Of a stretch of DNA of 60,854 bases, positions 1,455 through 24,842 are shown piece by piece. Below the pieces are notes generated by a model. That model saw only the letters and a program-made list of their open reading frames with translations. It made no database searches and was not told the origin of the DNA. The position numbers were made by a program, and so were the translations under genes. Source of the DNA: a virus (Duplodnaviria > Caudoviricetes); IMG/VR virus record IMGVR_UViG_3300028145_000004, positions 1 to 60,854 of that record. One strand, written 5' to 3'. Within the stretch, counting starts at the first letter, position 1. Each line of letters starts with the position of its first letter.

Positions 1455-1676
1455 ATGGGCAAGCGTGTCGGCAAGGTGTTGGTGCAGTTGTGGGTCGACG
1501 AAGATCAGCACGCTCGGTGGCGGCGGGCGTTCAAGACACGGCTTCGTCGGGCTGGGTTGTCGGCGCCCGACAAGTTTCTTGCGCCGTGGATACGCAGCGA
1601 GATGGACCGCGTGGTGGCGGATCTCGGTGAACCTCCGCCAGACCCGGTGCCGGAGCGTGACGAAGATGCGGCTTGA
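1455..1676 (+). CDS. Hypothetical small basic protein, possibly DNA-binding
   Basis: ORF with GGGGAG upstream, directly preceding the initiator gene. Confidence 0.5.
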   Translation: MGKRVGKVLVQLWVDEDQHARWRRAFKTRLRRAGLSAPDKFLAPWIRSEMDRVVADLGEPPPDPVPERDEDAA

Positions 1677-1691
1677 TTGCGAGTGTCCGCC

Positions 1692-2579
1692 ATGTCGGAT
1701 CGCTACTACTCGTTTCGTCCGCGTTACTGGACCGGCACAACGGGCAAGCTGATTCGCGCAGCGGGGCGTGACGCTCAGGTGTTGGGCGCTTACCTGTTCA
1801 CGTGCGCGTCGGCTTCGTCGATCGGGCTGTACTACCTGCCGCTGCCGACGCTGTGTCACGAACTCGGCATGTCGAGCGAGGACGCGCGTGCGGCAATCGT
1901 TGCGCTGCAGGACATCGGGTTTGCCTTCTACGACTTCGAGTGCGAGGAGGTTTGGATTCCCGAGATGGCCGCGCAGCAGTACGGGCCGAAGCTCGTGCCG
2001 CCGAACCACCAGCACGCAGGTGTGGTGAAGCTCATCGCGAGCCTGCGCAAATCACCCTTCTTCGACGCCTTTTACGAACGCTACGAAGAGGCGTTTCACC
2101 TTCCCGACCCAGACGATCCTACCACCACACGTCCCAAGCGACCCAAACTCAAGGCGATACCAGCACAGCAGGAACTCATCCCACTCGACAACGATTCCGA
2201 CGACGACGAAGGCGACGATCTCGAAGACGGGGACGACGACGGCGTTGAAGTGTCGACCGAGAACGGCACGGTTGTCATCACCTCCGACATGCTCGGCGAC
2301 GGCTACAACAAGAACTGCGCGCGGCTGTACGGGCTGCCGTGCGTGACGCTGCCGCTCACCGAGGAGCGCCGTCGAAAAGCGCGGGCGCGGCTCAAGGAGC
2401 ATCCCGACCCGCAGTGGTGGGCGTCTGTGTTCGTGCGCGTAGGAACGTCGGATTTCTTGTGCGGGCGCGGCAAGGGTAATTGGCGTCTGACCTTCGAGTG
2501 GTTGACCAAAAATGCGAGCAACGCCGTTCGAGTGATCGAAGGCGAATTTGACAACGGAGCACGACATGCCCAAGCGTAA
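1692..2579 (+). CDS. Phage replication initiation protein
   Basis: N-terminal RPRYWTGTTGK...YLFT...IGLYYLP...HELGM winged-helix type; C-terminal WRLTFEWL...VIEGEFDN typical of phage replisome organisers. Confidence 0.8.
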   Translation: MSDRYYSFRPRYWTGTTGKLIRAAGRDAQVLGAYLFTCASASSIGLYYLPLPTLCHELGMSSEDARAAIVALQDIGFAFYDFECEEVWIPEMAAQQYGPKLVPPNHQHAGVVKLIASLRKSPFFDAFYERYEEAFHLPDPDDPTTTRPKRPKLKAIPAQQELIPLDNDSDDDEGDDLEDGDDDGVEVSTENGTVVITSDMLGDGYNKNCARLYGLPCVTLPLTEERRRKARARLKEHPDPQWWASVFVRVGTSDFLCGRGKGNWRLTFEWLTKNASNAVRVIEGEFDNGARHAQA

Positions 2580-3159
2580 GTCACGTGCGGAATCGGGCGG
2601 CTTGTTCGTCCCCAAGCAAGGCAACGAAGCGGAGTCGCCAGAGGCTCCACGCGCAGCGCGACCCGGTGAATGCCTCACGTGTCACAACTTCATGTCGGCT
2701 TCGTTCTTCGGTCGACAACCGACCGACGACGATCACCCGGTGCACTGCTACGGCTCTGCATGCGCGTGGCAGTCGAAGCACGGGCGCGAGCCGCATCACG
2801 GTCGCACGTCGTATCAAGCCTGCTGGAAGTGCCACGGCGACATGGGATGCGAGAAGTGCAGCGGGTCGGTGCAAGACGTGCTGTGCACGAAGTGCGCTGC
2901 ATGGGGAACACCGGAAGCTCTCGCCAACCACGGCCCGGTGACCAACGATCCGGGTCAGTTGCAGAAGCGACACGGCAAGCGTGCTCCGACGTTCGAGGAG
3001 TACCCAGAGCACTTCAAGGCGATGGCGCGCGACCGCAATTCACTCGAACCCGAATTACCGCGAGGCCGCTATCGCCCGCAGATCAAGAGCGTGCCGCAAC
3101 CCGAGCCGTGCGACTACGACGGCGAAGGGATATTCGAGCCGGTGTGGGATGAACAGTGA
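2566..3159 (+). CDS. Cys-rich (zinc-binding) hypothetical protein
   Basis: Multiple CxxC pairs; overlaps the initiator stop. Confidence 0.6.
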   Translation: MPKRKSRAESGGLFVPKQGNEAESPEAPRAARPGECLTCHNFMSASFFGRQPTDDDHPVHCYGSACAWQSKHGREPHHGRTSYQACWKCHGDMGCEKCSGSVQDVLCTKCAAWGTPEALANHGPVTNDPGQLQKRHGKRAPTFEEYPEHFKAMARDRNSLEPELPRGRYRPQIKSVPQPEPCDYDGEGIFEPVWDEQ

Positions 3160-3434
3160 GCGAAAAGAGAAACGAGATGAACGAGGACGACGAGTATCGC
3201 GAGTGGGAGAAGCAGTGGGAAGCGCAATTGGTGCAGCGCAAGAGAGATGCGACGTTTGATGCGGCGCACGCGTTATTCTCGCCAGAAGAAGCGCAGGATC
3301 TGCTCGATAAGCTGCGCACCAACAAGGGTCCGTGGACGCGGTGGGCGATGGGGCCTATCGTGGAGGCACTGCAAGAGGTGATCGACGGGCCGCCAACTTC
3401 CCCCGAATCGACTCGCGAACCGCGTCGGGACTGA
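3156..3434 (+). CDS. Hypothetical protein
   Basis: GTGA-coupled to the upstream ORF. Confidence 0.5.
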   Translation: MSEKRNEMNEDDEYREWEKQWEAQLVQRKRDATFDAAHALFSPEEAQDLLDKLRTNKGPWTRWAMGPIVEALQEVIDGPPTSPESTREPRRD

Positions 3435-3717
3435 TCTTCAGGGTCTCGCAGATGTTCACGAAGCTGAACGGCCAATCCCAATCCGTGTCGAGCATCCAGC
3501 GCAACGCTTCGTCCCACGGCCTGCCGCGCGCATCGGGCGGACCACAGCGCCAAGTGCGTGGCACAGGCTCCATCAGCGCGCATTTCACGGCGTCTTCGAG
3601 CACGGCGAGCATCAAGCGTTTCTCACCCGTGTTGACGACCTTTTGTCGCAGCGGCATCTGCGCCGGCAGCATCGGATCGTTGGCGAACAGTTCGGTGTAA
3701 AGCGGGGCAGATGTCAT
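3355..3717 (-). CDS. Conserved hypothetical protein (EKRLMLAVLEDA...WPFSF.NICE.L family)
   Basis: Motif recognised from a family I recall as expanded in Candidatus Binatia genomes; function unknown. Confidence 0.65.
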   Translation of the reverse strand: MTSAPLYTELFANDPMLPAQMPLRQKVVNTGEKRLMLAVLEDAVKCALMEPVPRTWRCGPPDARGRPWDEALRWMLDTDWDWPFSFVNICETLKISPDAVRESIRGKLAARRSPLAVPPR

Positions 3718-3802
3718 GCGGCCCGTGGTGCCACAGCGGCAGCGAGAAAAGCAAGACTGTACGCTTGACATGCCCGACGGTTCCGGTGTATCGGACCCCG
3801 AC

Positions 3803-4033
3803 ATGAGGGCTCCCAAGAAAGCGCGTAAGGTCGAATGCAGTGCGTGCGGAACGATTCTCACCACGGTCAACGGCGAGTGGTTGCGGCACGTACGCCGCAA
3901 AGCCGGCTTGTCTCTCAAGCGCATGTCGGCGAAGTCGGGGATTCCGAAGACGACACTCCACAACGTCGAGACCAACGCGTTTCGTCCGAGCGTCGAAGTG
4001 CTTGGGCAGTACGGGAAGTTGGGAGCACGATGA
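3803..4033 (+). CDS. XRE-family HTH regulator with N-terminal CxxC
   Basis: LRHVRRKAGLSLKRMSAKSGIPKTTLHNVETNAFRPS; TTGACA at 3765-3770. Confidence 0.8.
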   Translation: MRAPKKARKVECSACGTILTTVNGEWLRHVRRKAGLSLKRMSAKSGIPKTTLHNVETNAFRPSVEVLGQYGKLGAR

Positions 4034-4989: not shown

Positions 4990-6486
4990 ATGCCCGACAA
5001 CACCCTCAAGCTCTCGCCCGAGCAGCAGCAGAAGCTGTCTACGAATCTCGGCGCGTGGCATCTTGCTCTGCGACCCGACGAAAAGCCTGCGTGGTTTCAC
5101 CAGCGGCTCATCATCCCGGCCATCGAGAGATTGCTCAACGGCAGGGGCAAGCGGAAGTTGGCGATATGCCTCCCGCCCGGACACGGCAAGTCGGAAGTTG
5201 GGACTGTTTCGTTGATTCCCTTCCTGCTTGGCTCGCGTCCTGGCATTCGCGCTATGACGCTTTCCTACTCGACCGCGTTTGCGATGGAGTTTGGTCGGCG
5301 CATCAGGAACATCTGCGAGTCTGATCTAGCCACCGAAGTCTTTCCCACAGCTCACCCCACCCTCGATTCTCACGGCAGCAAGCGATTCAGCACCAAGGGC
5401 GGCAGCAGTTACTTCGCCGCAGGGTTCAACGATCGAATCGCAGGCGTCCACTATGACTTCATCGGCATCGACGATCCGGTGAAGTCCATGTTCGAGGCGC
5501 AGTCCGAGCCGAAGATGCGCGCTCGTTTCGACGTGTACCGTTCCGTGGTGAAGGACCGTCTACGACCGAAAGGCAAAATGCTGATGTCGCTCACGCGCTA
5601 CTGGCTGCGCGACTTCTTTGCGCGCGTCATGGAAGCCGAGCCTGATGCGTGGGACATCCTGATCGTGCCCGCCGAAGATACCGACGGAAAGTTTGGGTGG
5701 CCCCCTGATCGTCGTGGCAGGTTTTTGTGGAGCGACTACTACGGCGACGCGCACTACGAGTCGGCCAAGTCGGATCAGGAGGTGTGGTGGTCAGTGTGGC
5801 AGCAACAGCCGCGCGCCTTCGACGAGTTCTGGTTCAACGAGGATTGGTTTCTCACCTACAAGCCGGGAACGGTAAAGCGTGGCTGGGCGCACTACATGAT
5901 TTGCGATCCTGGCTTGGCGATGTCGGCACGTTCCGACCGCACCTCGATTCTCGTGATCGCGGCTGGGCCGGAGAACAGAGTCTTCGTGGTCGACTGGGTG
6001 TACGACCGTTTGAACCCAGAACAACGCGCGCAACACATCGTGCGTTTGGCGAGAAAATGGAAACCGCGCCGATTCGTTTACGAGGAGCAGGGATTGGTGT
6101 CCGACACGTTCTACCTCAATCAGCGCATGGCGAAAGAAAATCTCGTGCTGCGACCTGTTGCTGTGGGTCGCAAGGGGCCGCGAGCGCAGTTGACCAAGGA
6201 GTCTCGCATCCGAGAGTTACGCAGCGACTTCGCGCAGGCACGCATCTGGTTTCCGCCCTCGATCATGCAGAAGTGTGCGGACGGGTCTGAGATCGACGTG
6301 ATTGCCACGTTCCGAAACGAGGAGTTCATTCCCTATCGTGGCGAAGATTCGGTGCGCCACGACGACGGCCTGGACTCGCTCTCGCGCATTCACGATCCCG
6401 AGCTGCGGATTCAGTTCATTCCCGAACCGGACGGTCGACCTGAGCGGCGCGAGCCGCAACGTGGAGGATGGGAGGCCGCGTGGTAG
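4990..6486 (+). CDS. terL: Terminase large subunit
   Basis: Walker A LPPGHGKS, Walker B FIGIDDP, RNase H-like MICDPG...SDRT and C-terminal HDDGLDSLS; upstream of portal. Confidence 0.95.
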   Translation: MPDNTLKLSPEQQQKLSTNLGAWHLALRPDEKPAWFHQRLIIPAIERLLNGRGKRKLAICLPPGHGKSEVGTVSLIPFLLGSRPGIRAMTLSYSTAFAMEFGRRIRNICESDLATEVFPTAHPTLDSHGSKRFSTKGGSSYFAAGFNDRIAGVHYDFIGIDDPVKSMFEAQSEPKMRARFDVYRSVVKDRLRPKGKMLMSLTRYWLRDFFARVMEAEPDAWDILIVPAEDTDGKFGWPPDRRGRFLWSDYYGDAHYESAKSDQEVWWSVWQQQPRAFDEFWFNEDWFLTYKPGTVKRGWAHYMICDPGLAMSARSDRTSILVIAAGPENRVFVVDWVYDRLNPEQRAQHIVRLARKWKPRRFVYEEQGLVSDTFYLNQRMAKENLVLRPVAVGRKGPRAQLTKESRIRELRSDFAQARIWFPPSIMQKCADGSEIDVIATFRNEEFIPYRGEDSVRHDDGLDSLSRIHDPELRIQFIPEPDGRPERREPQRGGWEAAW

Positions 6487-7381: not shown

Positions 7382-9589
7382 ATGCCGCTCCAGCCGTTAC
7401 TCGAACTGAACCCAAAACTCGAAGTAGGCGAAAAGCTCTCGCCGAATCTGCCAATGGGTGCGGAGGGGGCAGAGTCCGATCGGCGCGTCCCGATGGAACG
7501 GGGCGACCTCACGGAGTGGATTCGCAAGGAGCTGAGTCAGGCTGACCCGGAGATTTCAAAGTTCCGAGAAGCCGGCTTGCAGTGCGCGCAGTTCGTTGCC
7601 GGAAACCAGTACGACCCGGAGACGCGAAAGATCCTACGCATCGAGCGTCGGCCCGACACTGCGTTCAACTCCGTACAGCGGTTTGTGAACTACATCTCGG
7701 GTGTCGAGAGGCGCACCACGAAGGCTCTGATTTACCAACCCGCCGTCATCGACAACGCGCTGCAGCAAGCATTCGGCGAGTTCATGACCAACGCGTACGA
7801 AGCAACGATGCGTTCGTGCGGAGGTGGGTTCGAGCGCAGCCGTGCATTCGCCGACATGCTGGTCACGGGCGTGGGTTGGACGGACACGTACATCACCAAG
7901 AATCGTGACCCGAAGGGCCAGATCAAGCATGTGCGCGTGCCGTGGCGCGAGATGCTGTGGCCCGACTGTTCGGACGAAAACATGATGTCGACGCGGTGGC
8001 GTGCGCGTGAGCCGCTGATCGACAAGTACGAAGCGGAGCGACGGTGGCCGAAGCATAGGGCGCTGATTGCAGGTGCGGTCGGTGGTCGCGGGGCTGACGA
8101 GTTTCCCCAGAAGTCACCCGTGTTCTACACGGTGCCGAACATCGAGACCGAGCCCATCGACAAGCAGGGTACGATGCCCAAGAAGGCGGGCAAGGTCTGC
8201 GTCACGGAGTTCCAATACTACGACGACGAAGACGGGCGCGCGTTCGTCGACCCGGTGACCAAGGAGACCGTATGGCTCTCCGACGCCGACTTCCGCATCT
8301 ACGAAAAGCGGCTGCAGATCATGGCGCCGAATCTGCGCGTGATGGCGGACAAGGCAACGCACCGCGTGTATCGCGTCGCGTATCTGCTCAACCGCAAGTA
8401 CATGCTCGACGAGCCGAAGCGACTTCCCGGCGACCGCTTCTCGCTCAACTGCATCACGGGCCACTACGACGAAGACAACCGCATGTGGTACGGCTTCGTT
8501 CGGCTGCTGATGGACCCGCAGCGATACGCGAACAAGTTCTTCAACCAGCTCATCGAGATCATCGGCGTGTCGGCGAAGGGTGGGGCGATTGTCGAGGAGG
8601 GTGCGTTCACTACCGACGCGCAGCGCCACGACTTCGAGAACACATACGGCAAACCGGGCGCAATCAACATCGTTGCCGAGGGCGCGTTGAAAGAGGGCAA
8701 GGTGATGCCCAAGCCCGCCCCGCAAATGCCTTCCGGCACGATGGAGATGCTGCAGTGGTGCATCGGCAGCATGGAGCAGGTGACCGGAATCTCGGCTGCG
8801 TCTCTCGGACTGATCGTCGACCCCGGCCAAACTCCCGCAACGCTCATGCGCCAACAGCAGCAAGCGGGGCTCACCGTTCTCGCGCACGAGTTCGACTCAC
8901 TGTCCCGCTACCGCCTCGAAGACGAAGGCAAGACGATTGCGGCGTATCTCGGTCTGCTCGCCGACGGAAGGCTCATGCGAATCGGTGCGCCCGAAGCGCC
9001 GCAGGTGATCCAGTTGCTACGCGAGCCGTTCAGCGTCGAATACGATTTGCTTCTCGACGACACCGAGCACGACCCGACGCTGCGTGCGCAGTACAGCAGC
9101 TTCCTGCTCGAAGCCCTGCCCGCACTCACGCGTCAGGGACTGTTTGTTCCGCAGATGCTCGACTACCTGCCGTTCCCCGTGAAGATCCGCAACGCCATCA
9201 AGGAGTCCATGATCGCGCAGCAAAAAGAGCAAGAGGCTGCCGCGAAGGCGGGTATCAACCTGAAGGGGCGCGGCACACCTCGGGACCCACGCGAAACAGA
9301 GGCGCGCATCGCCGATATCCGCTCGAAGGCAATGCTGCATCAGGCCAAGGCACAGTCGCTGTTGCAGAACAGTCGGCGCGAAGATGTCCGAACGCTGCTC
9401 GACCGCTTGCAAGCGCAGCGAGAAGAACGTATGCAGCACGCCCAGCACGGTTTGGAACGGGAGGGACACATGCTGGAGCGAGACAAGTTGGACCTCGATT
9501 CACAAAAGGCGGCGGCGAAGCTCATGACGGACATGGCGAAGGTTCACGCGCAGCGGGACGCGGCGCGACGTAGCGGCAGCCGAGAATGA
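7382..9589 (+). CDS. Portal protein (P22-like)
   Basis: About 700 aa after terL; FVAGNQY, FNSVQRFVNYISG, YGFVRLLMDPQRYANK, MEQVTGIS; C-terminal coiled coil. Confidence 0.9.
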   Translation: MPLQPLLELNPKLEVGEKLSPNLPMGAEGAESDRRVPMERGDLTEWIRKELSQADPEISKFREAGLQCAQFVAGNQYDPETRKILRIERRPDTAFNSVQRFVNYISGVERRTTKALIYQPAVIDNALQQAFGEFMTNAYEATMRSCGGGFERSRAFADMLVTGVGWTDTYITKNRDPKGQIKHVRVPWREMLWPDCSDENMMSTRWRAREPLIDKYEAERRWPKHRALIAGAVGGRGADEFPQKSPVFYTVPNIETEPIDKQGTMPKKAGKVCVTEFQYYDDEDGRAFVDPVTKETVWLSDADFRIYEKRLQIMAPNLRVMADKATHRVYRVAYLLNRKYMLDEPKRLPGDRFSLNCITGHYDEDNRMWYGFVRLLMDPQRYANKFFNQLIEIIGVSAKGGAIVEEGAFTTDAQRHDFENTYGKPGAINIVAEGALKEGKVMPKPAPQMPSGTMEMLQWCIGSMEQVTGISAASLGLIVDPGQTPATLMRQQQQAGLTVLAHEFDSLSRYRLEDEGKTIAAYLGLLADGRLMRIGAPEAPQVIQLLREPFSVEYDLLLDDTEHDPTLRAQYSSFLLEALPALTRQGLFVPQMLDYLPFPVKIRNAIKESMIAQQKEQEAAAKAGINLKGRGTPRDPRETEARIADIRSKAMLHQAKAQSLLQNSRREDVRTLLDRLQAQREERMQHAQHGLEREGHMLERDKLDLDSQKAAAKLMTDMAKVHAQRDAARRSGSRE

Positions 9590-9710: not shown

Positions 9711-9926
9711 ATGGCGAAGCGCGGAATAGATATGCGAGTCGATGATCCGTTGGATCGTAAGGCTGGGGAAAAGTGTCAGTTGTGCGATGCCGAGCCCGAG
9801 AAGTTGCGGCCCGTTCTCATATCAGGCGAGGGAATCATCGGGGGTCGTAACCGAACGACGGTCTGTGAAGAGTGTGCCAAGCAGATGCTTTACGATCTGA
9901 CTGGAATATCTGGCAAGGTGGCCTGA
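9711..9926 (+). CDS. Small zinc-ribbon hypothetical protein
   Basis: CQLC...CEEC; stop overlaps the next ATG. Confidence 0.4.
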   Translation: MAKRGIDMRVDDPLDRKAGEKCQLCDAEPEKLRPVLISGEGIIGGRNRTTVCEECAKQMLYDLTGISGKVA

Positions 9927-11179
9927 TGCCGAAGCCGGTGATTCTGGTTGTGGATCGCGGCGCATTTCTACCCTTCGGCCAAGCCCTCGTACCCGACGCA
10001 AGCGTGTTGTGGTTCTCGGAGTTTCGAGACGTCGCATCGTACGCGAAAAACGCGATGGTGGGACGCGACGTGCCGGGTATGGAGCGCGTCGACTCCATGT
10101 GGTCGTACATCGACGACGTGGACTGCGTTGCCTTCCCCGATTGCGGTGATGGCGACATGCAGTCGTATCTGCGTGAGCACGGCTATGCAGTGTGGGGCAG
10201 CGGCAAAGCGGAGATGCTTGAACTCGACCGCTACCAATTTCGCAAGCTGCTTGAGACTCTGGACATGCCGGTGATCCCATATCGACACGTCGTCGGGCTC
10301 GATGCACTGCGCTCAATTCTGCGTGACGAGAACGACCTGTACGTGAAGTCATCGTTCACACGCGGCGACCTTGAGACCTTCGGGCACAAGACGTGGCACC
10401 TCTCGAAGTCGTGGTTCACCGATCTGAAGAATCGTCTCGGTCCACACGGCGACGAGATTGAACTGATCGTCGAAGAGAAAGTACCGGGCATCGAAATCGG
10501 GTTCGACGGATGGTCCGTGGATGGCATGTTTCCGAAGCGTTCGCTGTGGGGCGTCGAGTTGAAGGATCAGGCGTTCGTAGGGCGCGTGCAGGACGTCAGC
10601 GACATGCCGCGTTGCTTGAGCGAGGTGAACGAACAGATCAGCGAGTCGTTGGCCGCTCTCGGTATGCGCGGCAACTTCTCCACCGAGGTGCGTGTTGCCG
10701 AGAACGGCACGGCGTATTTCATCGACCCATGCTGCCGCGCAGGTTCGCCGCCGATGGCGTGCCTCTCGGTGCTGGTGTCGAATTGGCCCGAGATTGTGTT
10801 GGGCGGCTCCCACGGTGAACTGATCGAAGGAGAGTTCGAGGCGGAGTACGCTGCCGAAATCGAAATCAAGAGCGAGTGGTCGACGCACAATTGGGGCGCG
10901 ATCGAGTTTCCTGATGAACTCGCACCGCTCGTGCGCTTGCGGCGTGCGGCGATGGTCGATGGCAAGTGGTGGGTGGTGCCCCATGCTTGGATGAATATTG
11001 TGGGCTCCGCCGTAGGGCTTGGCGACTCACCCGAAGAAGCCATCGACGCAGCAATCGACGTGGCTGAACAGATCGAAGGGCAGGACTTGGAGTGGAATCG
11101 CAATTGCAAAGACGAAGTGCTGACGCTGTGGTCGGAGGCACAAGAGCAGTGCGACAAGGCAACCACGAAGGCGGCGTGA
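9926..11179 (+). CDS. ATP-grasp fold ligase (PurD/GARS-like, divergent)
   Basis: LELDR...RKLL, LYVK, IVEEKVPGIEIGFDGW and FIDPCCRAGSPP, matching the ATP-grasp E/D-x-x-x-R-x-G-x-P motif. Confidence 0.75.
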   Translation: MPKPVILVVDRGAFLPFGQALVPDASVLWFSEFRDVASYAKNAMVGRDVPGMERVDSMWSYIDDVDCVAFPDCGDGDMQSYLREHGYAVWGSGKAEMLELDRYQFRKLLETLDMPVIPYRHVVGLDALRSILRDENDLYVKSSFTRGDLETFGHKTWHLSKSWFTDLKNRLGPHGDEIELIVEEKVPGIEIGFDGWSVDGMFPKRSLWGVELKDQAFVGRVQDVSDMPRCLSEVNEQISESLAALGMRGNFSTEVRVAENGTAYFIDPCCRAGSPPMACLSVLVSNWPEIVLGGSHGELIEGEFEAEYAAEIEIKSEWSTHNWGAIEFPDELAPLVRLRRAAMVDGKWWVVPHAWMNIVGSAVGLGDSPEEAIDAAIDVAEQIEGQDLEWNRNCKDEVLTLWSEAQEQCDKATTKAA

Positions 11180-11550: not shown

Positions 11551-11601
11551 ACCTTTTCCCTTTCGCAACAGCCTGTGGTAAGGGCGCACAAGGAGAACAC
11601 G

Positions 11602-12864
11602 ATGGCGGCACCAAACGAAAACACGACGACTCTCGATTACGTCCCCGGAAGCACGGCGACCTACGACCCATTCGCGGCAGTCGAGGCGCGCGACAATGCC
11701 AACATGGCGGCGCGCGGCGTGATCCCGCACGACCTCGCACCGGGCATGGTGCCCGCACCAACCGTGCAGGTGTCGAGCGAGCCCGTCGAACCCACACCGC
11801 CGCCCGAGCCAAGTTCCCAGCCAACCCAACTTCCACCGGAAGCCGTGCCACCGGCACCGGCAGCACCACCGACCCCTTCGGACTCGCCGCCAGCGACCGA
11901 ACCGACGCCGCCAGCCTCCTCCCCGGAGCCCGCGCCCTCTGCTCCGGTGGAGACGGCGCCGGTAGCGCCACCCCCGCCAGTCGCAGGACGTGAGCAGACC
12001 CCCGAGGAGCGCGCGGCATGGGCGCGGTATCGAGAAGAAGAGAAGCGCACCAAGGCTGCGATGGTGGAGCTGCAGCAAACGCGTGATCGTCTCGCGCTGA
12101 TCGAGCAGCAGCAAACGCAGGCCAGACTCGCCGAGCAGCAACGCCAGCAGCAGGAGCAATTGGCCCTGCAGGGCGAAGCATACCAACCCGATCCGGTCGA
12201 GCAGATGCAGGCGCAGATGGCGCAGATGCAGCAGACCATGCAGCAGCAGCAACTGACCTTCGAGCTGCAGACCCAAGAGCAGGCATTTCAGTCGCAGCAT
12301 CCCGACTACGCAGCGGCCCGCGACTTCTACGTGCAAAAGCAGATCGAGGAAGCGGACGCTCTCGGGCAGATTGCAGTCGTGCAGGAACGCGCCTTGAATC
12401 ATCCCGTCGTCGGGCCAGCAATTCGGCAGGCAGCCGAGCAGGCCGGCAAGCTCACGGTCGATGTCGCTCGCGAGACCGCCATTCAGATCATCTTCCAAGA
12501 GCGCAGGGCGCAGATGCTCGAAGGCGCGCGACGCGTCGGAAAGACTCTGCCGCAGCTCGTATACGAACTCGCACCACGTCACGGCTATCAAGCGCAGAAC
12601 GGAAACAGTGCCGCAGCGCCGGCAGCTCCAACAGCCGCGATCTCTGCCGCCGAGCAGGTTCGGCAAGAGCAGACTGCCGCAGCCGCGAACTCACTGTCGA
12701 ACGTGACGCGGGAATCGTCACCGCCGCCGCCGCGCATCCAGACCCGTGCGGACCTCGAAACGATGGGTCGCACGGACGTGAACGCCCTCAACGACTTCAT
12801 CGCCAAAATGGACAATCCGAACCGGCCCGGATACGACCCGAACTGGCTGGAGAAGATGGCATAA
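11602..12864 (+). CDS. Capsid scaffolding protein
   Basis: Pro/Glu-rich N-terminus, long Gln-rich coiled coil, FQSQHPDY motif; AAGGAG Shine-Dalgarno; between portal and capsid. Confidence 0.7.
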
Positions 12865-13657: not shown

Positions 13658-14145
13658 GGGGAGTTCCGATTCGCGTCAGTCCCAATACGTTCACGATTGT
13701 GGATGCTGAGGACGCACCATTGGTCAACAAATATTATTGGAGTCTGCATCAACAACGAGGCTACGTGCAGGGCAGGCGGCATGGGCCGAATCACGGGACG
13801 CACCGCTGGGTACTCTTGCATCGCCTGATTCTGGGCCTGCGATTTGGCGAGCGCAAATATGCAGATCACATCAACCACAACATCTTGGACAATCGTCGTG
13901 CGAATCTACGGTTTGCAACTCCACAGCAAAACGGCATGAATCGACGCACCAAGCATGGTGGCGCGTCGCCATTCAAGGGCGTCACGCGTGGCGGATGGGG
14001 ATGGCGAGCGCGCGTGCGCCTTGACGGAAAACTCCGAAACTTCGGCGAATATAAGACCGAAGAAGAAGCCGCCATGCGCTACAACGTCGAAGCGAAGAAA
14101 CTCTTCGGCGAGTTCGCCTACCTCAACCCTGTCGAAATGGGATGA
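13654..14145 (+). CDS. HNH-AP2 homing endonuclease
   Basis: [33 protein letters not shown]...WRARV...[23 protein letters not shown]. Confidence 0.95.
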
Positions 14146-15863
14146 GACTCCACGCCACCATCGCTGCGTTGGTGCTGATCGCAAGCGCGGCATCGGCGCA
14201 GACCATCGGGGCAGGCCAGTGTTGCGAGTGCGCTGCAGCCCTGTGTACGGACTTCCAGGCGTCCATCGGAGCGCCCTGCATCGCGCCTTGCACGCTGATA
14301 AACAACGCGGTGTGCGCCAACTTCATCAGCGTCGGGGCTGCATGCCTGACCTTCACTCCGACGCGGACCCCGACCCTCACGCCGACTCCAACTAGAACAC
14401 CCACCCTCACGCCGAGCCTGACGCCGACTCCAACTCGGACCTTCACGCCGACCCCCGCAACGGATCATATCTACACTTTCTGCCTTGGGCCTACACCGAC
14501 GCCCGAGGACATCCAGTCAGTAGAGAAATCAGCCGCAACCTATTGCCCTATCGGCGGGAGTACGACGGACACGCAATCCTTTCCTCTGGTTGGCAAGCGT
14601 TCCTTCAGCGGCGGCGACTATACTGTGGCCACTGGTCTAGTGCGATGGCTTACGGGACCGACGTTGGCATTGACTCAGGCAGTTGGGGGAACCGGGACCA
14701 TCACGGTTGGAAGTTCTACCTTGACGGATGATGGGTATAGCCTCGGGGAAGATTGGTCGTTGTGGAACATTGCTGATCCGGGTGCCAGTTTCACCTGCTT
14801 GGAGCCATCGGATTCTCCTCCGTGGCAGGGGTTTCCGGCAATCGGTCAAGAACCACCTTCGACTGTTGGTACATGGACTTTCCCGCTTCAGATCGCGGCG
14901 CTCCCCACGTGGCTGAATACCGGCACTGGCGATGGGTACTCGTACGCGAAGGCGGCGATTCATTGCGCAGGCGACAATTGCAACAGCGGGAACGCGCCTA
15001 CCGGCCTCAATGAGGTGGCGCTGACAGAGTGGTGCTTTAGCGTTTATGTGAATGACGTTACGCCGACCCCAACGAGCCCGACGTCTACGCCGGCCCCGAC
15101 GTCTACACCGATCCCCGGTTGTTGTGGATTCGCGGGTATTACGGTGGACCCCTTTGCTGGTGCAACCTGCTTGGACCACACTACACCCGGACCCCCGTTC
15201 TCGTCGCTCGACGACTGCATAGCGGTCCTGAACTCGCTGCCGACGCCGCTGCCGGGAACCCCGACGCCTTACGTCGTGACGTACAACGGCGCGGCTACGT
15301 GCGCGACGCCGGGGGATGTAACGAGCGCGTGTGCGCTGGGGACGGGAACCGCGACGCCCGCAGTCACTCCGACGCCGACCGCAACGGGCGCTACCCAGAC
15401 TCCGACAGGAACGCCGAGCATCACCGCAACAATCACCCAAACGCCCACCGTCACCGACACGCCTTCAGTGACGCCAACCATCACTACCACCGCCACGCCC
15501 ACCTGCTTTCCTCAATTCGACAAGCGAGGTGTACCCGACCTGACGCTGTGCAATCAGGCGTGCGTCTCACCACCGTGCGACGGAACGTACGTGCCGGCCT
15601 ACAACGAGCCGTTCGGGCGCGTGAAGGTGATGACGTGCGAGGATGCTGCCGGAACGTCGTCAGCGGTGCCCCTGTGCGTGTCGCATACAGGCTACTACTC
15701 CAACACACCGATTCCTCTCGGGACGCCTGTCGCCTGCCCCGGCAAGTTCAAGTTCGTCGACACGTTTGAGAAGTGCACGAGCCGCATCACGGCGTGTAGT
15801 TCATGTCGGGTAACGTCGTGGATTGATCGGTTGCCGGATGCTGTTGGGAAAGTGCAGCCGTGA
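14142..15863 (+). CDS. Secreted Cys-rich Thr-Pro-linker multidomain protein
   Basis: Signal peptide ending ASA-Q; TP linkers; C-terminal DKRG.PD..LCN...VPAYNEPFG...DRLPDAV..VQP shared with 12866-13657. Confidence 0.75.
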   Translation: MRLHATIAALVLIASAASAQTIGAGQCCECAAALCTDFQASIGAPCIAPCTLINNAVCANFISVGAACLTFTPTRTPTLTPTPTRTPTLTPSLTPTPTRTFTPTPATDHIYTFCLGPTPTPEDIQSVEKSAATYCPIGGSTTDTQSFPLVGKRSFSGGDYTVATGLVRWLTGPTLALTQAVGGTGTITVGSSTLTDDGYSLGEDWSLWNIADPGASFTCLEPSDSPPWQGFPAIGQEPPSTVGTWTFPLQIAALPTWLNTGTGDGYSYAKAAIHCAGDNCNSGNAPTGLNEVALTEWCFSVYVNDVTPTPTSPTSTPAPTSTPIPGCCGFAGITVDPFAGATCLDHTTPGPPFSSLDDCIAVLNSLPTPLPGTPTPYVVTYNGAATCATPGDVTSACALGTGTATPAVTPTPTATGATQTPTGTPSITATITQTPTVTDTPSVTPTITTTATPTCFPQFDKRGVPDLTLCNQACVSPPCDGTYVPAYNEPFGRVKVMTCEDAAGTSSAVPLCVSHTGYYSNTPIPLGTPVACPGKFKFVDTFEKCTSRITACSSCRVTSWIDRLPDAVGKVQP

Positions 15864-16865: not shown

Positions 16866-17157
16866 TTGACTTTCACGTCCAACGAGCGTACACGCCTCAA
16901 TCAGGACCAGATGGCGTCCGTCAAAAGCGATCGTAGCACTTGAGGGAGCGTCAGCCCTCGCAGCACCGCTGAACGCAGGAGAAGCTGGGAACCTCGATCC
17001 GAGCGTAGCAACAGGTAGATCGCTGCAGCGCCGTCAAGTCTGCAGTCGGGTAGTTCGCGATCCGTCGAACGCGCGATCCCTTCAGGTAGTCCGTGGGCCT
17101 GTGCACCAAACCCCACTCCACGGAAGCGCAACCCTACAGCAGCAAAAGGAGACAGCA
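16866..17157 (+). promoter_or_regulatory. Capsid promoter and long structured 5' leader
   Basis: TTGACT-N17-TACACG at 16866-16894; several hairpins with (C/G)CGUC-like loops; AAGGAG Shine-Dalgarno before ATG 17158. Confidence 0.5.
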
Positions 17158-17548
17158 ATGGCCGAAACCATTGTTGCCGTGAATGATCCCGTTGCAGTAC
17201 AGGTGTACTCGCACCGTGTGTTCTTTCAGGCACTGCGGCAGACAACCGCAGCCAAGCTCATGGCCGTCGGGCTCAACGCCCGCGATCAGAGCAACTTCGT
17301 GCAGTTCTTCGACGAAACCACCAAGGGACCGGGCGACCTCATCAAGTACGACCTGATCCCCAACCCCTTCGGTCCCGGCGTCCTCGGTGATGCCCCGATC
17401 GCTGGGCAGGAAGTGCCGCAGAACCCCTTCCAGGACCAGCTCTACATCAACCAACTGCGGCAAGCGATTCTTCTCGTCGGTCGTATGTCCCAACAGCGAG
17501 TGCCCTACTCCATGCGCGACAACGCGAAGGTGGGCCTTGCCAACTGGT
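17158..17548 (+). CDS. Major capsid protein (N4-gp56/DUF4043 family), exon 1
   Basis: GPGDLIKYDL...GVLGD..IAGQE...LYINQLRQA...MSQQRVPYSMRDNAKVGLANW; reading frame broken by the intron TAA. Confidence 0.9.
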
Positions 17549-17812
17549 AAACCTTTGCCCTCCCGTGTGGCGACACGCGGGGAATGCACGGCGTGAAATG
17601 CTGGGAACCCGTAACGTAAAGTCGACGGCAATCAGCAGGGATGAAGCGAATGCTTTGGCCCTCAACGACTATCCCCATTGCGGGAGTACACTCGAAGCCG
17701 AGTGGAAGCGCGCCGCCTGCCACGTGCAGGATGATATAGTCTGGTCCCCGACGAAACTCGGGGCTGCTCATTCGAGCGGTTGCGACGTAGCGAGTCGCAG
17801 CGAACACGAACG
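17549..17812 (+). ncRNA. Group I intron 1 (264 nt, no ORF) in the major capsid gene
   Basis: P AAATGCTGGGAA 17596, Q AATCAGCAGG 17630, R CTCAACGACTAT 17661, S GATGATATAGTCTG 17730; exon ends in U, intron ends in G; splicing gives LANW-Y-KDMID. Confidence 0.9.
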
Positions 17813-18212
17813 ACAAGGACATGATCGACGTCGGGTTGATGAACCAACTCGGCGGCAACACCTTCCAGACCGACACCCGCTACACCGGCCTGAACGCAGT
17901 CACGGCGACCACGGCTGCGAATCACCTCTACGCCGGCAACAAAACGTCGGAGGCGGGACTGTCCAGCTCCGACATCTTCACGACTGCGTTGATTCCACAG
18001 ATCGTGGCGTCGGCGCAGGGCTCACTGACGTTCCCGATCAAGCCCGTGGTGCTCAAGGGCATCGAGATCGCGGGCGTCCTGTTTCTGACCGCGCAGCAGG
18101 TGCGGGACCTGAAGCAGAACTTCGACGTCGGCGAGTGGGGCGACATCTACCGCGCTGCGTTGCAGGGCGGGCAGGTGACGGGAAATCCTCTCTTCACCGG
18201 GGCCATTGGGAT
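17813..18212 (+). CDS. Major capsid protein, exon 2
   Basis: KDMIDVGLMNQLGG...QVRDLK...W...NPLFTGAIG family motifs. Confidence 0.9.
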
Positions 18213-19083
18213 CGACAAGTCGATGGTCCCAGAGCTGGGCAACTAGCTCCAGAAAAACCGCGTGAATTGCAGGGACATCTCGTGATACACGAGACAATCT
18301 GCAGCCAAGCGAGGTTCTGATGATGAAGCAGTGCAAGCTATGCAAGGAGTTCAAGCCAGAGGAAGCATTCTGGTTCAGCGAGAAGAAGCGGTATCGTACG
18401 GCTCGCTGCGATGAATGCCGGCATGCACAGACCAAACTATATCGCGATGCGAACCGTGAGAAGATCGCGAAGCAGGTCCGCGCATGGCAGGTGAACAACC
18501 CAGAAAAGCTCACCGCCAACTGGCGACGACACTTGGAGCGCAATCCAGGCTACACGCAACGCGTAGCAGCGAAGTGGAGAAGCGATCCGAGCAACGTCGA
18601 ACGTCATCGCGAGGGAATGAAGCGACGACGCGAAGAACTCAAGCAACGCGTCTACGATGCCTATGGTGGCGCGCACTGCAATTGCTGCGGAGAAACAATG
18701 CGACGATTCTTGACGATGGACCACATCGACAATGACGGCGCATTGCATCGTCGCACGATAGGTGGTGGAAAGCCGAGTTCACGCTCTTTGTACGCGTGGC
18801 TGATTGCCAGTGGCTTTCCACCGGGTTTCCAAGTTCTGTGCATGAACTGCAACTGGGGCAAGGCACGGAATGGCGGAGTATGCCCACATCAGGATCTTGA
18901 AGGTTCAGAGGCTATCCCTTCGGGGAGTACGCTCGAAGTCGTAACATCAGCGAGTGGAAGCGCGCGGCATCCTTATCCATGCTTTGCTGGCGTGGATGAG
19001 GATGATGAAATAGTCCGATCTGCGGCGCGAGTCGCAGCAGCCGAACAGGCGGGGAAGGCATGACGAACCTTCCTGAACATTTG
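18213..19083 (+). ncRNA. Group I intron 2 (871 nt) carrying an HNH endonuclease ORF
   Basis: P1 GGGAU/GUCCC with U-G pair, P10 GUCGAU/AUCGAC, P GAATTGCAGGGA 18264, Q AATCTGCAGC 18296, R TTCAGAGGCTAT 18904, S GATGAAATAGTCC 19004; splicing gives GAIG-M-IDNVVLH. Confidence 0.9.
18320..19063 (+). CDS. Intron-encoded HNH homing endonuclease
   Basis: CKLC/CDEC zinc motif; YGGAHCNCCGE...LTMDHIDNDG...QVLCMNCNWGK; the ORF tail overlaps the ribozyme core. Confidence 0.88.
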   Translation: MMKQCKLCKEFKPEEAFWFSEKKRYRTARCDECRHAQTKLYRDANREKIAKQVRAWQVNNPEKLTANWRRHLERNPGYTQRVAAKWRSDPSNVERHREGMKRRREELKQRVYDAYGGAHCNCCGETMRRFLTMDHIDNDGALHRRTIGGGKPSSRSLYAWLIASGFPPGFQVLCMNCNWGKARNGGVCPHQDLEGSEAIPSGSTLEVVTSASGSARHPYPCFAGVDEDDEIVRSAARVAAAEQAGKA

Positions 19084-19468
19084 GATCGACAACGTTGTCC
19101 TCCACCAAGACACCCGGTGTCCGTGGGGCGACACGGCACAGAACCTCGTGTGGGACCCGAACACGGGGACGTACGTCGCAGCGCCGACCGCGATTGGTCT
19201 GCCGGCTGCGGGAACCACCAGCGTCGGGCGCGCGATCTTTGTGGGCGCGCAGGCCGCTGCGTTTGCTTGTGGAGCCGAGGAGGGTCCGTCTGGGCAGCCT
19301 CTTCGGGTGAGATGGGTGGAGGAATTGCTCGATGCCAACAACCAGCTCCGCGTCACCGCAGGGATGATCTGGGGCATCAAGAAGACGGTTTTCAACAGCC
19401 AGGACTACGCTTCGATCGTGTGCTCGACGTGGAACGCGCCGACCAACACGTTGAACGTGACTCCGTAA
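19084..19468 (+). CDS. Major capsid protein, exon 3
   Basis: IDNVVLHQD...VGRAIFVGAQAAAFA...WVEELLDANNQL...IWGIKKTVFNSQDY; three exons total 1176 nt = 391 aa. Confidence 0.9.
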
Positions 19469-19485
19469 GAAAGGAGGGATGACAA

Positions 19486-20004
19486 ATGGCCGCAGCAGTT
19501 CAGAACATCTATGCGGACAACTACAGCGATCCGATGGCCGAAGCGTCGGTCAGTGGCGTCGTCGTCGTCCGACCTTTCCTCGTCAACCTGGCGACGCTCG
19601 CCAATCCGTTGTTTTCGGCGACGTCGACCATCAAACTCTGCATGCTGCCCGGAAAGAACATGCCGGGATTCTTGCTGCAGAGCATCTGGATGGACGTACC
19701 CGATATGGACTCGGGCAGCAACGTCGTGCTCGAACTCGGGGACAACACAACCGCCAACCTGTTCGTGACGACCACCGAGATGGGCACGATCGGTCAGGTG
19801 GCGGGACGCGTCAGCAGCTACGCAGCGGTGGGTGGAGGTGGCTCCAACACGGTGGCGGCTGGCGTGGCGTTGGCAGTGCTGCCAAAGTCGTACACGGCAG
19901 ACAACGACCTGTTGCTGACGTTCACCGCAGGTCCGTCGACAGCAACAACCGGCATCATCCGGGGGTTCATCACCTACTCCCAGTGGCCGATGCGGTCGTT
20001 CTAG
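19486..20004 (+). CDS. Putative capsid decoration/structural protein
   Basis: Directly after the capsid gene with AGGAGG; beta-rich. Confidence 0.55.
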   Translation: MAAAVQNIYADNYSDPMAEASVSGVVVVRPFLVNLATLANPLFSATSTIKLCMLPGKNMPGFLLQSIWMDVPDMDSGSNVVLELGDNTTANLFVTTTEMGTIGQVAGRVSSYAAVGGGGSNTVAAGVALAVLPKSYTADNDLLLTFTAGPSTATTGIIRGFITYSQWPMRSF

Positions 20005-23387: not shown

Positions 23388-24842
23388 ATGCCTCTCAACC
23401 TCGCCAAGCGTAAGTTCCGCACCTTCGCCCCTGACGCTGACCCTCTCGACGACGGGGTTCTTGTCGACGGGAACAACTTCGTGCCGACGCAAATGGGGAT
23501 GCGTACCCTGCCCCAACTGCGACAGTTGACCTCTGCGCTGACGCAGCCGTGCCTCGGTTCAGCGGTGGTGACCTTCGCCGACGGTGAGCAGTTCGTTGTG
23601 GCCGGCACGGAGAACTTCCTGTGCAACATCGCGACGTCGGCATTCGACCCGACAGGTGTTGTGCCGTTCGGCGAGCAGGACTTGGGTGCCGTACTCATTC
23701 CACCGACACGTTGGCGCTTCGCGCAGTACCAAGAGCGTGTGTTCGCGGTCGATGGTGTGCGCCCGCCGTTCCAAGCGGATCAGGCGTCACTTGCTACTGC
23801 GAACCCGTGGACACCCGTACCGGACAACCCTCCCATCTCTGCACTCGTTGCGTCGTCGGACTTCTCCCTGTTTCTCGTAGAAGCCAATCCGAATGCGATC
23901 ACGGGCGGAGCAAGTGCGACGTGGTGGTCATCGCTCAACTCGCAGATTTGGGCGTCGGGTTCCGTGCAGACCGAGACGGTGCATTCGAGCATCACGCAGA
24001 CGCCGGGACCGATCACGGCAGCCAAGGCGTTGCGTTCCGCGATGGTGCTCTACAAGCGCAGCTCGATGTTCGTGGGGCAGCTTGTTGGACCGCCGTTCAT
24101 TTGGTCGTTCACCGAAGTCTCCCGCATCCGTGGCGCACTTTCACAGGAATCGGTGGTGTGCGTTGACGACGTGCACTATTTCCTGAGCGGCACCGACTGG
24201 TATTCCTTCGACGGATACTCGCTCTCACCGCTGCCCAATCAGCATCGCGAGTGGTTCTTTCGGAACATCGGCAGCATCGAGGAGCCGTACATTCTCGGTC
24301 GTTACGACTCTGCGCGCACCTGCATCTTCTGGCACTTCGCTCCGCTGAACGCGTCGAATCCCCTGCAGCCGCGAGAGTGGGTGGCGCTGAACCCGCGCAC
24401 GGGGCAGTGGACGCGTGGCTACAAGCGCATCGAGTCAACGCCATCGGGTATCGACCCGAACACGATTACGGAGCCGTTCGGTGTAACGTCGGTGCTGTTT
24501 CTCGACGACAACACGATGTGGGCGTACGACCGTACAGGGCAAGGTGCTGACCTGCCTGCCTACTTCACGACGGGGGACATTGGGGATCGTCACTTCATGT
24601 ACCAGCTCTCGCGTGTGCGTCCTGCCTTCACCGTGGTGAACGGGACGCCGAACCTCAACATCCAATCGAGCTACACACCGGGTGCTGCGTATACGACGGG
24701 GCCGACGATTCCTCTGAGCGCCGATGGTTGGTGGAACGTGTTGTCGAGTGCGAGGCTCCAACGCTTGCAAGTGTCGGTCGAAGATGATGTCGAGATCGCC
24801 GCAGACAACGAACTCCAACTGAGCCAAGTGGGCGACTACTGA
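23388..24842 (+). CDS. Tail nozzle / packaged-DNA stabilisation protein (P22 gp10 / tail tubular B-like)
   Basis: About 480 aa, beta-propeller-like; WRFAQY, GPPFIWSF..., VHYFLS; follows the adaptor. Confidence 0.75.
   Translation: MPLNLAKRKFRTFAPDADPLDDGVLVDGNNFVPTQMGMRTLPQLRQLTSALTQPCLGSAVVTFADGEQFVVAGTENFLCNIATSAFDPTGVVPFGEQDLGAVLIPPTRWRFAQYQERVFAVDGVRPPFQADQASLATANPWTPVPDNPPISALVASSDFSLFLVEANPNAITGGASATWWSSLNSQIWASGSVQTETVHSSITQTPGPITAAKALRSAMVLYKRSSMFVGQLVGPPFIWSFTEVSRIRGALSQESVVCVDDVHYFLSGTDWYSFDGYSLSPLPNQHREWFFRNIGSIEEPYILGRYDSARTCIFWHFAPLNASNPLQPREWVALNPRTGQWTRGYKRIESTPSGIDPNTITEPFGVTSVLFLDDNTMWAYDRTGQGADLPAYFTTGDIGDRHFMYQLSRVRPAFTVVNGTPNLNIQSSYTPGAAYTTGPTIPLSADGWWNVLSSARLQRLQVSVEDDVEIAADNELQLSQVGDY

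Follow-up and report, generated by a model that had tools for sequence, protein, structure and literature searches.

Two related group I introns interrupt the major capsid gene of a soil phage

The window analysed here, a stretch of 60,854 bp, is the whole of the virus record IMGVR_UViG_3300028145_000004, a tailed phage from soil that is rated 100% complete and has a G+C content of 60.7%. Its major capsid gene, on the + strand, is divided into three pieces by two insertions, one of 264 nt without an open reading frame (ORF) and one of 871 nt carrying an ORF for an HNH endonuclease (Table 1). We are highly confident that both insertions are group I introns of one subfamily. A first-pass annotation, made by a model from the sequence alone, had placed two such introns at 17549-17812 and 18213-19083, and it is at exactly these coordinates that the gene is split. 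The gene structure, the boundaries of its parts, the ribozyme fold and the family of the nuclease are established in the analysis that follows.

The capsid gene is continuous once both insertions are removed

Each of the three pieces scores above the curated cut-off of PF13252 (Phage_capsid_3), which is 23 bits, and the three matches are collinear on the 376-position profile, in keeping with the three-piece ORF of the first-pass annotation. Joined together, exons 17158-17548, 17813-18212 and 19084-19468 make up 1176 nt and encode 391 amino acids with a single terminal stop. The spliced protein is 62-64% identical to the uninterrupted homologues L006, L007 and L013, and it aligns without a gap at either junction in all three cases, a check that had been set beforehand. 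Taken separately, exon 1 is 65-86% identical to the relatives and exon 3 58-81%.

The exact junctions were searched by scoring every in-frame pair around each gap, both freely and under the requirement of a U at the exon end and a G at the intron end. The pairs chosen in the first-pass annotation were the best U...G solutions against the uninterrupted homologues, and the U and G residues concerned are present in the sequence (Table 1). Both insertion sites fall in invariant blocks of the protein, ..NW.K.. for the first and ..GAIG.. for the second. An alternative junction for intron 2, in which one copy of a 10-nt repeat found at the ends of the intron is deleted, was rejected: it yields a protein of 390 amino acids that needs a gap against the homologues.

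In the frame of the exons, stop codons are found at 17548-17550, starting from the last base of exon 1, and at 18244-18246, 11 codons into intron 2. Because unspliced RNA meets these stops, an intact capsid protein requires the removal of both introns.

The family of the protein had been given as N4-gp56-type, and this label has to be dropped. The uninterrupted homologue L007 matches PF13252 at 170.7 bits. The gp56 protein of N4 was tried as a candidate relative and rejected, as it matches PF25209 only, not PF13252, and its comparison with the homologue profile by hhalign gave a probability of 0.9%. N4 was also absent among the tblastn matches listed (the best 25 of 28 records). Among these listed matches, the closest phage capsids in GenBank share 25-40% identity; Microcystis, Paracoccus, Rhizobium, Klebsiella, Erwinia and Burkholderia are among the genera given as hosts. 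A profile search of the PDB with the capsid returned only entries titled 'Major capsid protein', with no phage names, so that kinship is left unsettled by the PDB.

A relative lacking the two introns has the predicted junctions in its DNA

Contigs of four metagenome runs were compared with the region. Run X1, from soil, contains 99% of the sampled words and is the only run with most of the region; it may be the source sample, in which case its reads are not independent. A separately assembled contig of X1 (record 5, 13,207 nt) spans 17452-19700 with 0 differences, which means that the intron-bearing arrangement is contiguous. The intron-bearing genome is the dominant form in X1, with a word depth of about 19 across the region and 0 differences.

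Run X2, a soil run of a different study, contains contigs from a close relative. In its record 7, 7 letters separate 17549 from 17821: exactly 264 nt are missing, and the frame across the join is as predicted. In record 10, 19084 is immediately preceded by the end of the relative's exon 2 (15 letters, 13 of them identical). Each of the predicted junctions is thus found in the DNA of a relative that lacks the two introns. Runs X3 and X4 gave short dissimilar pieces only and were uninformative.

These data bear on whether the split arose in the assembly, as an artefact or by the fusion of two phages into a chimera. The window is indeed a metagenome-assembled record, but the separate assembly, with the reservation made above on its source, carries the whole region in one 13-kb contig that agrees at every position, and the same kind of interruption is found in 5 of 13 related contigs from other samples (see below). 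We give an artefact practically no credit.

Both insertions carry the fold of a group I ribozyme

When 2.1 kb were searched with the Rfam group I model RF00028, both gaps were matched over model positions 1-253, that is, over the full model: intron 1 at 17522-17763 (38.7 bits, E 8e-8) and intron 2 at 18203-19037 (35.0 bits, E 1e-6). This agrees with the ribozyme core motifs that had been read by eye in both gaps. With the whole record as search space, the match of intron 1 had E 5.6e-10. In intron 2, the splice-site U of the model falls on U18212. No other Rfam family was found at E < 1 in the 2.1 kb, the three remaining hits having E 4.6-8.2. Inteins, group II introns or insertion sequences would be other ways to interrupt the gene, and the length of intron 1, a multiple of three, would suit such an account. 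However, intron 2 is not a multiple of three, the exon frame is closed by the stop codons at 17548-17550 and 18244-18246, and the group I model is the one that both gaps match, so that the chance of any of these elements being involved is minute.

At the nucleotide level, a sensitive blastn search against GenBank phages matched a single stretch, 17592-17641, which is the P4-P6 core of intron 1. It shows 87-92% identity with 45 phage records, of which 31 are from Staphylococcus, 11 from Bacillus and 2 from Lactococcus, the last being labelled only 'Bacteriophage'; one of the 45 annotates a 'Group I catalytic intron' beneath the match. Elsewhere in the window, further copies of the intron 3′ domain or of the HNH gene were looked for and not found. 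When seven related loci were searched jointly with Rfam (49.7 kb), only the intron of L008 passed E 0.01 (28.4 bits); the other introns of the relatives were recognised by their similarity to the window introns and with hidden Markov models (HMMs) built in this analysis.

The fold was examined on an alignment of seven intervening sequences, the two window introns and five from the capsid genes of relatives; that of L012 was omitted as a duplicate of L011. With helices drawn by eye, 98.7% of the 231 cells of the 3′ domain (P7, P7.1, P7.2, P8, P9, P9.1 and P9.2) are in standard pairs, and 25 of its 33 pairs change on both sides; none of 500 shuffles reached any of these measures. As a control, sliding the partner strand by 1-3 columns left 32-51% of cells paired. 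P2, P4 and P5 pair in 99% of cells, 9 of 14 pairs changing on both sides, and all 49 cells of the long-range helix P3 are paired, several of the changes there being compensatory. P7.1 and P7.2 are paired in 100% of cells, and 8 of their 10 pairs change on both sides. Since compensatory changes keep all helices across the seven copies, we conclude that the RNA fold is under selection. An unconstrained minimum free energy fold of intron 1 alone recovered P2-P6, P7.1, P7.2, P8, P9, P9.1 and P9.2, with z = -2.5. P7.1 and P7.2 are extra helices that come after P7 and before the 3′ strand of P3, which in Michel and Westhof's classification indicates subgroup IA. This is the type usual in phages.

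The same compensatory changes speak to a loss of splicing in the insertions, which would leave the capsid gene dead and the phage defective, or would have the protein made as separate fragments that assemble. There is precedent in PMC7344957 for HNH insertions that do not splice, and NrdA of phage Aeh1, split by such an insertion, is a published case of fragments that assemble. Here, by contrast, every ribozyme helix has been kept across the seven copies, the exons are free of frameshifts and stops and are 62-86% identical to relatives, the cuts lie within conserved blocks and not at domain borders, and the record is rated complete. Loss of splicing in both introns is therefore very improbable, and we retain two group I introns with intact folds as the explanation.

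Pairings at the splice sites

Each of the seven introns has a G, at intron position +8 to +14, that is able to pair with the final U of the exon. For intron 2 this pair is U18212-G18226; P1 includes 7 exon base pairs and P10 has 6 bp. The 10-mer repeated at the ends of intron 2 is accounted for by this 6-bp P10. For intron 1 the pair is U17548-G17557, P1 has 3 base pairs with the exon and 2 on the intron side, and P10 has 4 bp. P1 of the five introns from relatives has 4-6 exon pairs; for intron 1 of L005, the top choice of the script lay inside P2 and the second choice (4 exon pairs) was taken. The P1 and P10 pairings announced for both introns are thus present, strong in intron 2 and weak in intron 1.

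The nuclease gene of intron 2

The 247-amino-acid ORF of intron 2 matches phrog_2255 'HNH endonuclease' with E 1.5e-13, and also phrog_1035 and phrog_2633 'endonuclease VII'. Six intron ORFs, this one and those of relatives, were compared. The motifs CxxC...CxxC, DH and CxNCN...NGGxCPH are invariant in all six, as are residues C120, C123, D134, H135, C174, N176, C177, N178 and H190.

A GAGG precedes the start of the ORF, which lies in the P6 loop; the frame then continues through P7-P9 of the ribozyme, its last ~150 nt (18905-19063) overlapping P7-P9 of its own intron. Judged from ORF ends and core starts, the ORF runs into the P7-P9 core in 5 of the 6 ORF-bearing introns. Because of this overlap, part of the apparent conservation of the C-terminal end of the protein is conservation of the RNA.

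Points that weigh against the interpretation, and the state of intron 1

Several observations count against the explanation by two group I introns. Both Rfam scores are under the RF00028 gathering score of 50, and a default whole-window Rfam scan at gathering scores gave no hit; the covariance-model check planned with the first-pass annotation thus succeeded as regards significance in both gaps and fell short as regards the curated threshold. The helices were drawn on the same seven sequences on which they were then counted, which inflates the percentages of paired cells but not the changes on both sides. The ORF of intron 2 has no Pfam match, and no Pfam HNH family came up to E 10. As this ORF overlaps the core, its translation and ribozyme folding could interfere or compete with each other.

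What chiefly weakens the argument that intron 1 splices efficiently is its P1, the weakest of the seven (3 exon bp, compared with 4-7), together with a better pairing upstream. The guide sequence of this intron (17554-17562) pairs better with 17526-17534 than with the true site (5 of 6 exon pairs, with U17531-G17557), and the Rfam alignment likewise sets P1 at U17531 and not at U17548. Use of U17531 would remove 17 nt and destroy the frame. We rejected it as the real splice site, since coding continues to 17548 in the homologues and in the intron-less allele; it is retained in Table 1 as a possible cryptic site. Some group I introns can do with a short P1.

Together, these features could mean that only intron 2 is a working mobile intron, and that intron 1 is an impaired relic which splices poorly, or is mis-spliced at the upstream cryptic site, at a cost in capsid yield. 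Besides its 3-bp exon pairing and the Rfam placement of its guide sequence on 17526-17534, intron 1 has no nuclease ORF, and an intron is present at its site in none of the 13 relatives. On the other side, its core is complete and its helices pair as in the relatives, while the genome that carries it is dominant in run X1, at the depth given above and free of differences, with all exons intact. We consider a relic unlikely, though better founded than a general loss of splicing, and we keep to two group I introns of the same subfamily.

Related introns at six sites of one capsid family

Three scans of viral contigs yielded 13 distinct related contigs. The number of independent ones is below 13, as L011 and L012 seem to represent a single phage, and L018 and L019 likewise. 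Searched by tblastn with the spliced protein, the capsid gene is uninterrupted in 8 of the 13 and interrupted in 5. The insertions lie at about amino acid 93 (L008, L011 and L012), at about amino acid 139 (L004 and L005) and, as a second one in L005, at about amino acid 341; no intron was found at either window site among the 13. All six intervening sequences of these relatives resemble the window introns at the nucleotide level, and each has a related ORF, unlike intron 1 of the window.

Variation was also found within one sample. A minor variant in X1, an 870-nt contig (record 4) with a word depth of 3.7, has an insertion of ~783 nt with a P7-like core between 17435 and 17437, at a position that is empty in the window and that we call site A. 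Alongside it, an 88-nt contig without the insertion has a depth of 14.7. Site A is at the same codon as the introns of L008, L011 and L012, and the relative seen in X2 has an insertion there too (record 7). The main genome has a C, not a U, at 17436.

A sixth site comes from GenBank record MW202512.1 (L027, Podoviridae sp. ctDrO704). At about 2269-3966 it encodes a PF13252-type capsid protein, 41% identical, with an intron at about amino acids 30-41; this intron matches the domain HMMs built here with E 3e-11 (5′ domain) and E 3.4e-19 (3′ domain). In the annotation of the record, the N-terminal exon is a 'hypothetical protein', the rest a truncated 'major capsid protein', and the nuclease-like ORF of the intron an 'icea protein'. 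The fragmented automated annotation foreseen in the first-pass annotation has therefore come true for one related capsid gene, whose intron belongs to this family. The capsid gene of the window phage and those of 5 of the 13 relatives will be miscalled in the same way, as already seen in GenBank, unless introns are modelled, and default scans miss these phage introns because their scores are under Rfam's curated cut-off. We conclude that related introns occur at six sites in the PF13252 capsid family, with presence/absence variation within one sample.

The subfamily extends further. The 15-nt P4′-P6 motif of intron 2 was found in at least 118 viral-contig stretches, including contigs labelled as giant-virus bins, and the 3′ domain of the subfamily is present in 15 of the 80 motif-bearing loci that were scanned (L028-L107).

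As a separate observation, one of these loci, L031, has three ORF-less intron copies of the same subfamily within 1.4 kb (1472-2867, minus strand). The largest piece of the gene concerned matches the PHROG 'major head protein' family phrog_14242 (E 3.2e-11), and it lies downstream of an acidic scaffold-like ORF; a Pfam search with the L031 exon pieces gave only a sub-threshold SU10_MCP. L073 has the same three intron hits as L031.

A model for splicing and mobility

From these sequences we infer splicing activity, a target for the nuclease and homing, along the following lines. The late transcript would carry both ribozymes, each of which would fold and bind a free guanosine at P7. The RNA would be cut after the U that pairs with G in P1, at U17548 and at U18212, and P10 would then guide the joining of the exons after the terminal G of each intron (G17812 and G19083). 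The 391-amino-acid capsid protein would be encoded by the doubly spliced messenger RNA alone.

During co-infection, the HNH nuclease of intron 2 most likely promotes homing into capsid alleles that lack the intron. Intron 1, which has no nuclease gene, is probably a passenger that may be fixed in place or be co-converted from the nuclease cut 400 bp away. Double splicing was put forward in the first-pass annotation as a possible control point. Across the relatives, the pattern looks like selfish homing and not like regulation, because of the presence/absence variation, the six insertion sites and the nuclease ORFs.

A more speculative reading is that the capsid gene of this soil-phage lineage may be an active battleground for one mobile group I intron family, whose members, most of them with HNH genes, are found at no fewer than six sites of PF13252 capsid genes; the nucleases may act as weapons against the intron-less capsid gene of a co-infecting relative. 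Several introns in a gene would then confer immunity at several cut sites. Interference competition of this type has been reported for the intron endonuclease of phage PhiPA3 (PMC11620839). We hold this reading to be doubtful.

Genome setting

The coordinates of the capsid gene, its introns and other features are collected in Table 1. With the large terminase, the portal and a virion structural protein placed by PHROG profiles, the split capsid gene sits in the structural module of a tailed phage. Between portal and capsid, three long ORFs (9872-11179, 11575-12864 and 14142-15863) are without a PHROG match at E 1e-5.

Table 1. Positions of features in the window and of the introns in related contigs.
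Feature	Position	Strand	Remarks
Large terminase	4990-6486		PHROG profiles
Portal	7382-9589		PHROG profiles
Shine-Dalgarno-like AAGGAG	17146-17151	+	6 nt upstream of the capsid start codon (17158); read from sequence
Capsid exon 1	17158-17548	+	130 codons + 1 nt; last base U17548; PF13252 E 1.6e-15, profile positions 2-121, 57.4 bits
Empty site A	17436-17437	+	further intron of about 783 nt here in X1 record 4 and X2 record 7
Possible cryptic 5′ splice site U17531	17526-17534	+	upstream exon stretch pairing with the guide sequence of intron 1 (17554-17562)
Intron 1	17549-17812	+	group I, 264 nt, no ORF; P7 strands 17667-17671 and 17737-17741; last base G17812
Capsid exon 2	17813-18212	+	400 nt; last base U18212; PF13252 E 3.6e-12, profile positions 130-263, 46.3 bits
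Intron 2	18213-19083	+	group I, 871 nt; guide sequence 18226-18232; P7 strands 18910-18914 and 19011-19015; last base G19083
HNH endonuclease ORF	18320-19063	+	247 aa; within intron 2
Capsid exon 3	19084-19468	+	includes stop codon; PF13252 E 3.5e-10, profile positions 289-355, 39.8 bits
Virion structural protein	23388-24842		PHROG profiles
Intron of L004	4416-5276		HNH-bearing, related
Introns of L005	2155-3035, 3655-4481		HNH-bearing, related
Intron of L008	4280-5037		HNH-bearing, related
Intron of L011	2743-3487		HNH-bearing, related

Comparison with known systems

Two introns in a capsid gene had been called unusual in the first-pass annotation, which overstates the case, as capsid-gene introns have been published for the mycobacteriophage LittleE, the lactococcal phage Tuc2009 (cited in PMC3706429) and crAss-like phages. 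In LittleE, the capsid gene contains a group I intron with an HNH gene, and its splicing was shown by reverse transcription PCR and N-terminal protein sequencing (Pope et al. 2013, PMC3706429). An ORF-less 265-bp relative of the LittleE intron is found in BAKA and Optimus tail genes (PMC3706429). The arrangement described here shares with LittleE the interruption of the major capsid gene by a group I intron, the existence of an HNH-bearing copy and of a short ORF-less copy (~265 nt), an exon ending in U and an intron ending in G, and the presence of the intron in only some close relatives. It differs in that LittleE has one intron per gene with the HNH gene on the opposite strand, whereas the window phage has two introns and an HNH gene on the same strand that overlaps the core. 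The capsid family and the host lineage differ as well, and splicing was shown by experiment there while it is predicted from the sequence here.

Also published is a crAss-like capsid gene in five fragments, where three of the four gaps contain group I intron domains (Yutin et al. 2021, PMC7886860). The Delta and Zeta groups of crAss-like phages resemble the window phage in having several group I introns per capsid gene, in being metagenome-assembled and in their fragmented annotation (PMC7886860). Unlike here, the introns were recognised there through endonuclease domains, in phages of gut Bacteroidetes with another capsid family (PMC7886860); in the present case, the ribozyme fold is backed by covariation and the boundaries by intron-less alleles. 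Further phage capsid genes with two introns were not found in the literature searched, although the supplements of PMC7886860 may list more capsid-gene introns, and on the insertion sites of capsid introns in metagenomes the search returned only general discussion of selection in pangenomes.

MW202512.1 has in common with the window a PF13252-type capsid gene interrupted by an intron of the same subfamily with a nuclease-like ORF; it has a single intron, at another site. Outside capsid genes, orf142 of phage Twort reportedly contains three group I introns, and T4 has such introns in td, nrdB and nrdD. They have IA-type cores with P7.1 and P7.2, with related introns in one phage gene and the possibility of exon skipping between like introns. 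The genes and hosts are different from ours, and skipping of exon 2 (400 nt) would here break the reading frame.

The arrangement is thus a further example of the phage capsid-gene introns already known, and it brings nothing new on how phage introns work. What is newly added is the occurrence of six insertion sites in one capsid family and the variation within one sample. This six-site family, with a minor variant carrying a third intron in the same sample, makes a compact natural system for the spread of introns and HNH genes to new sites.

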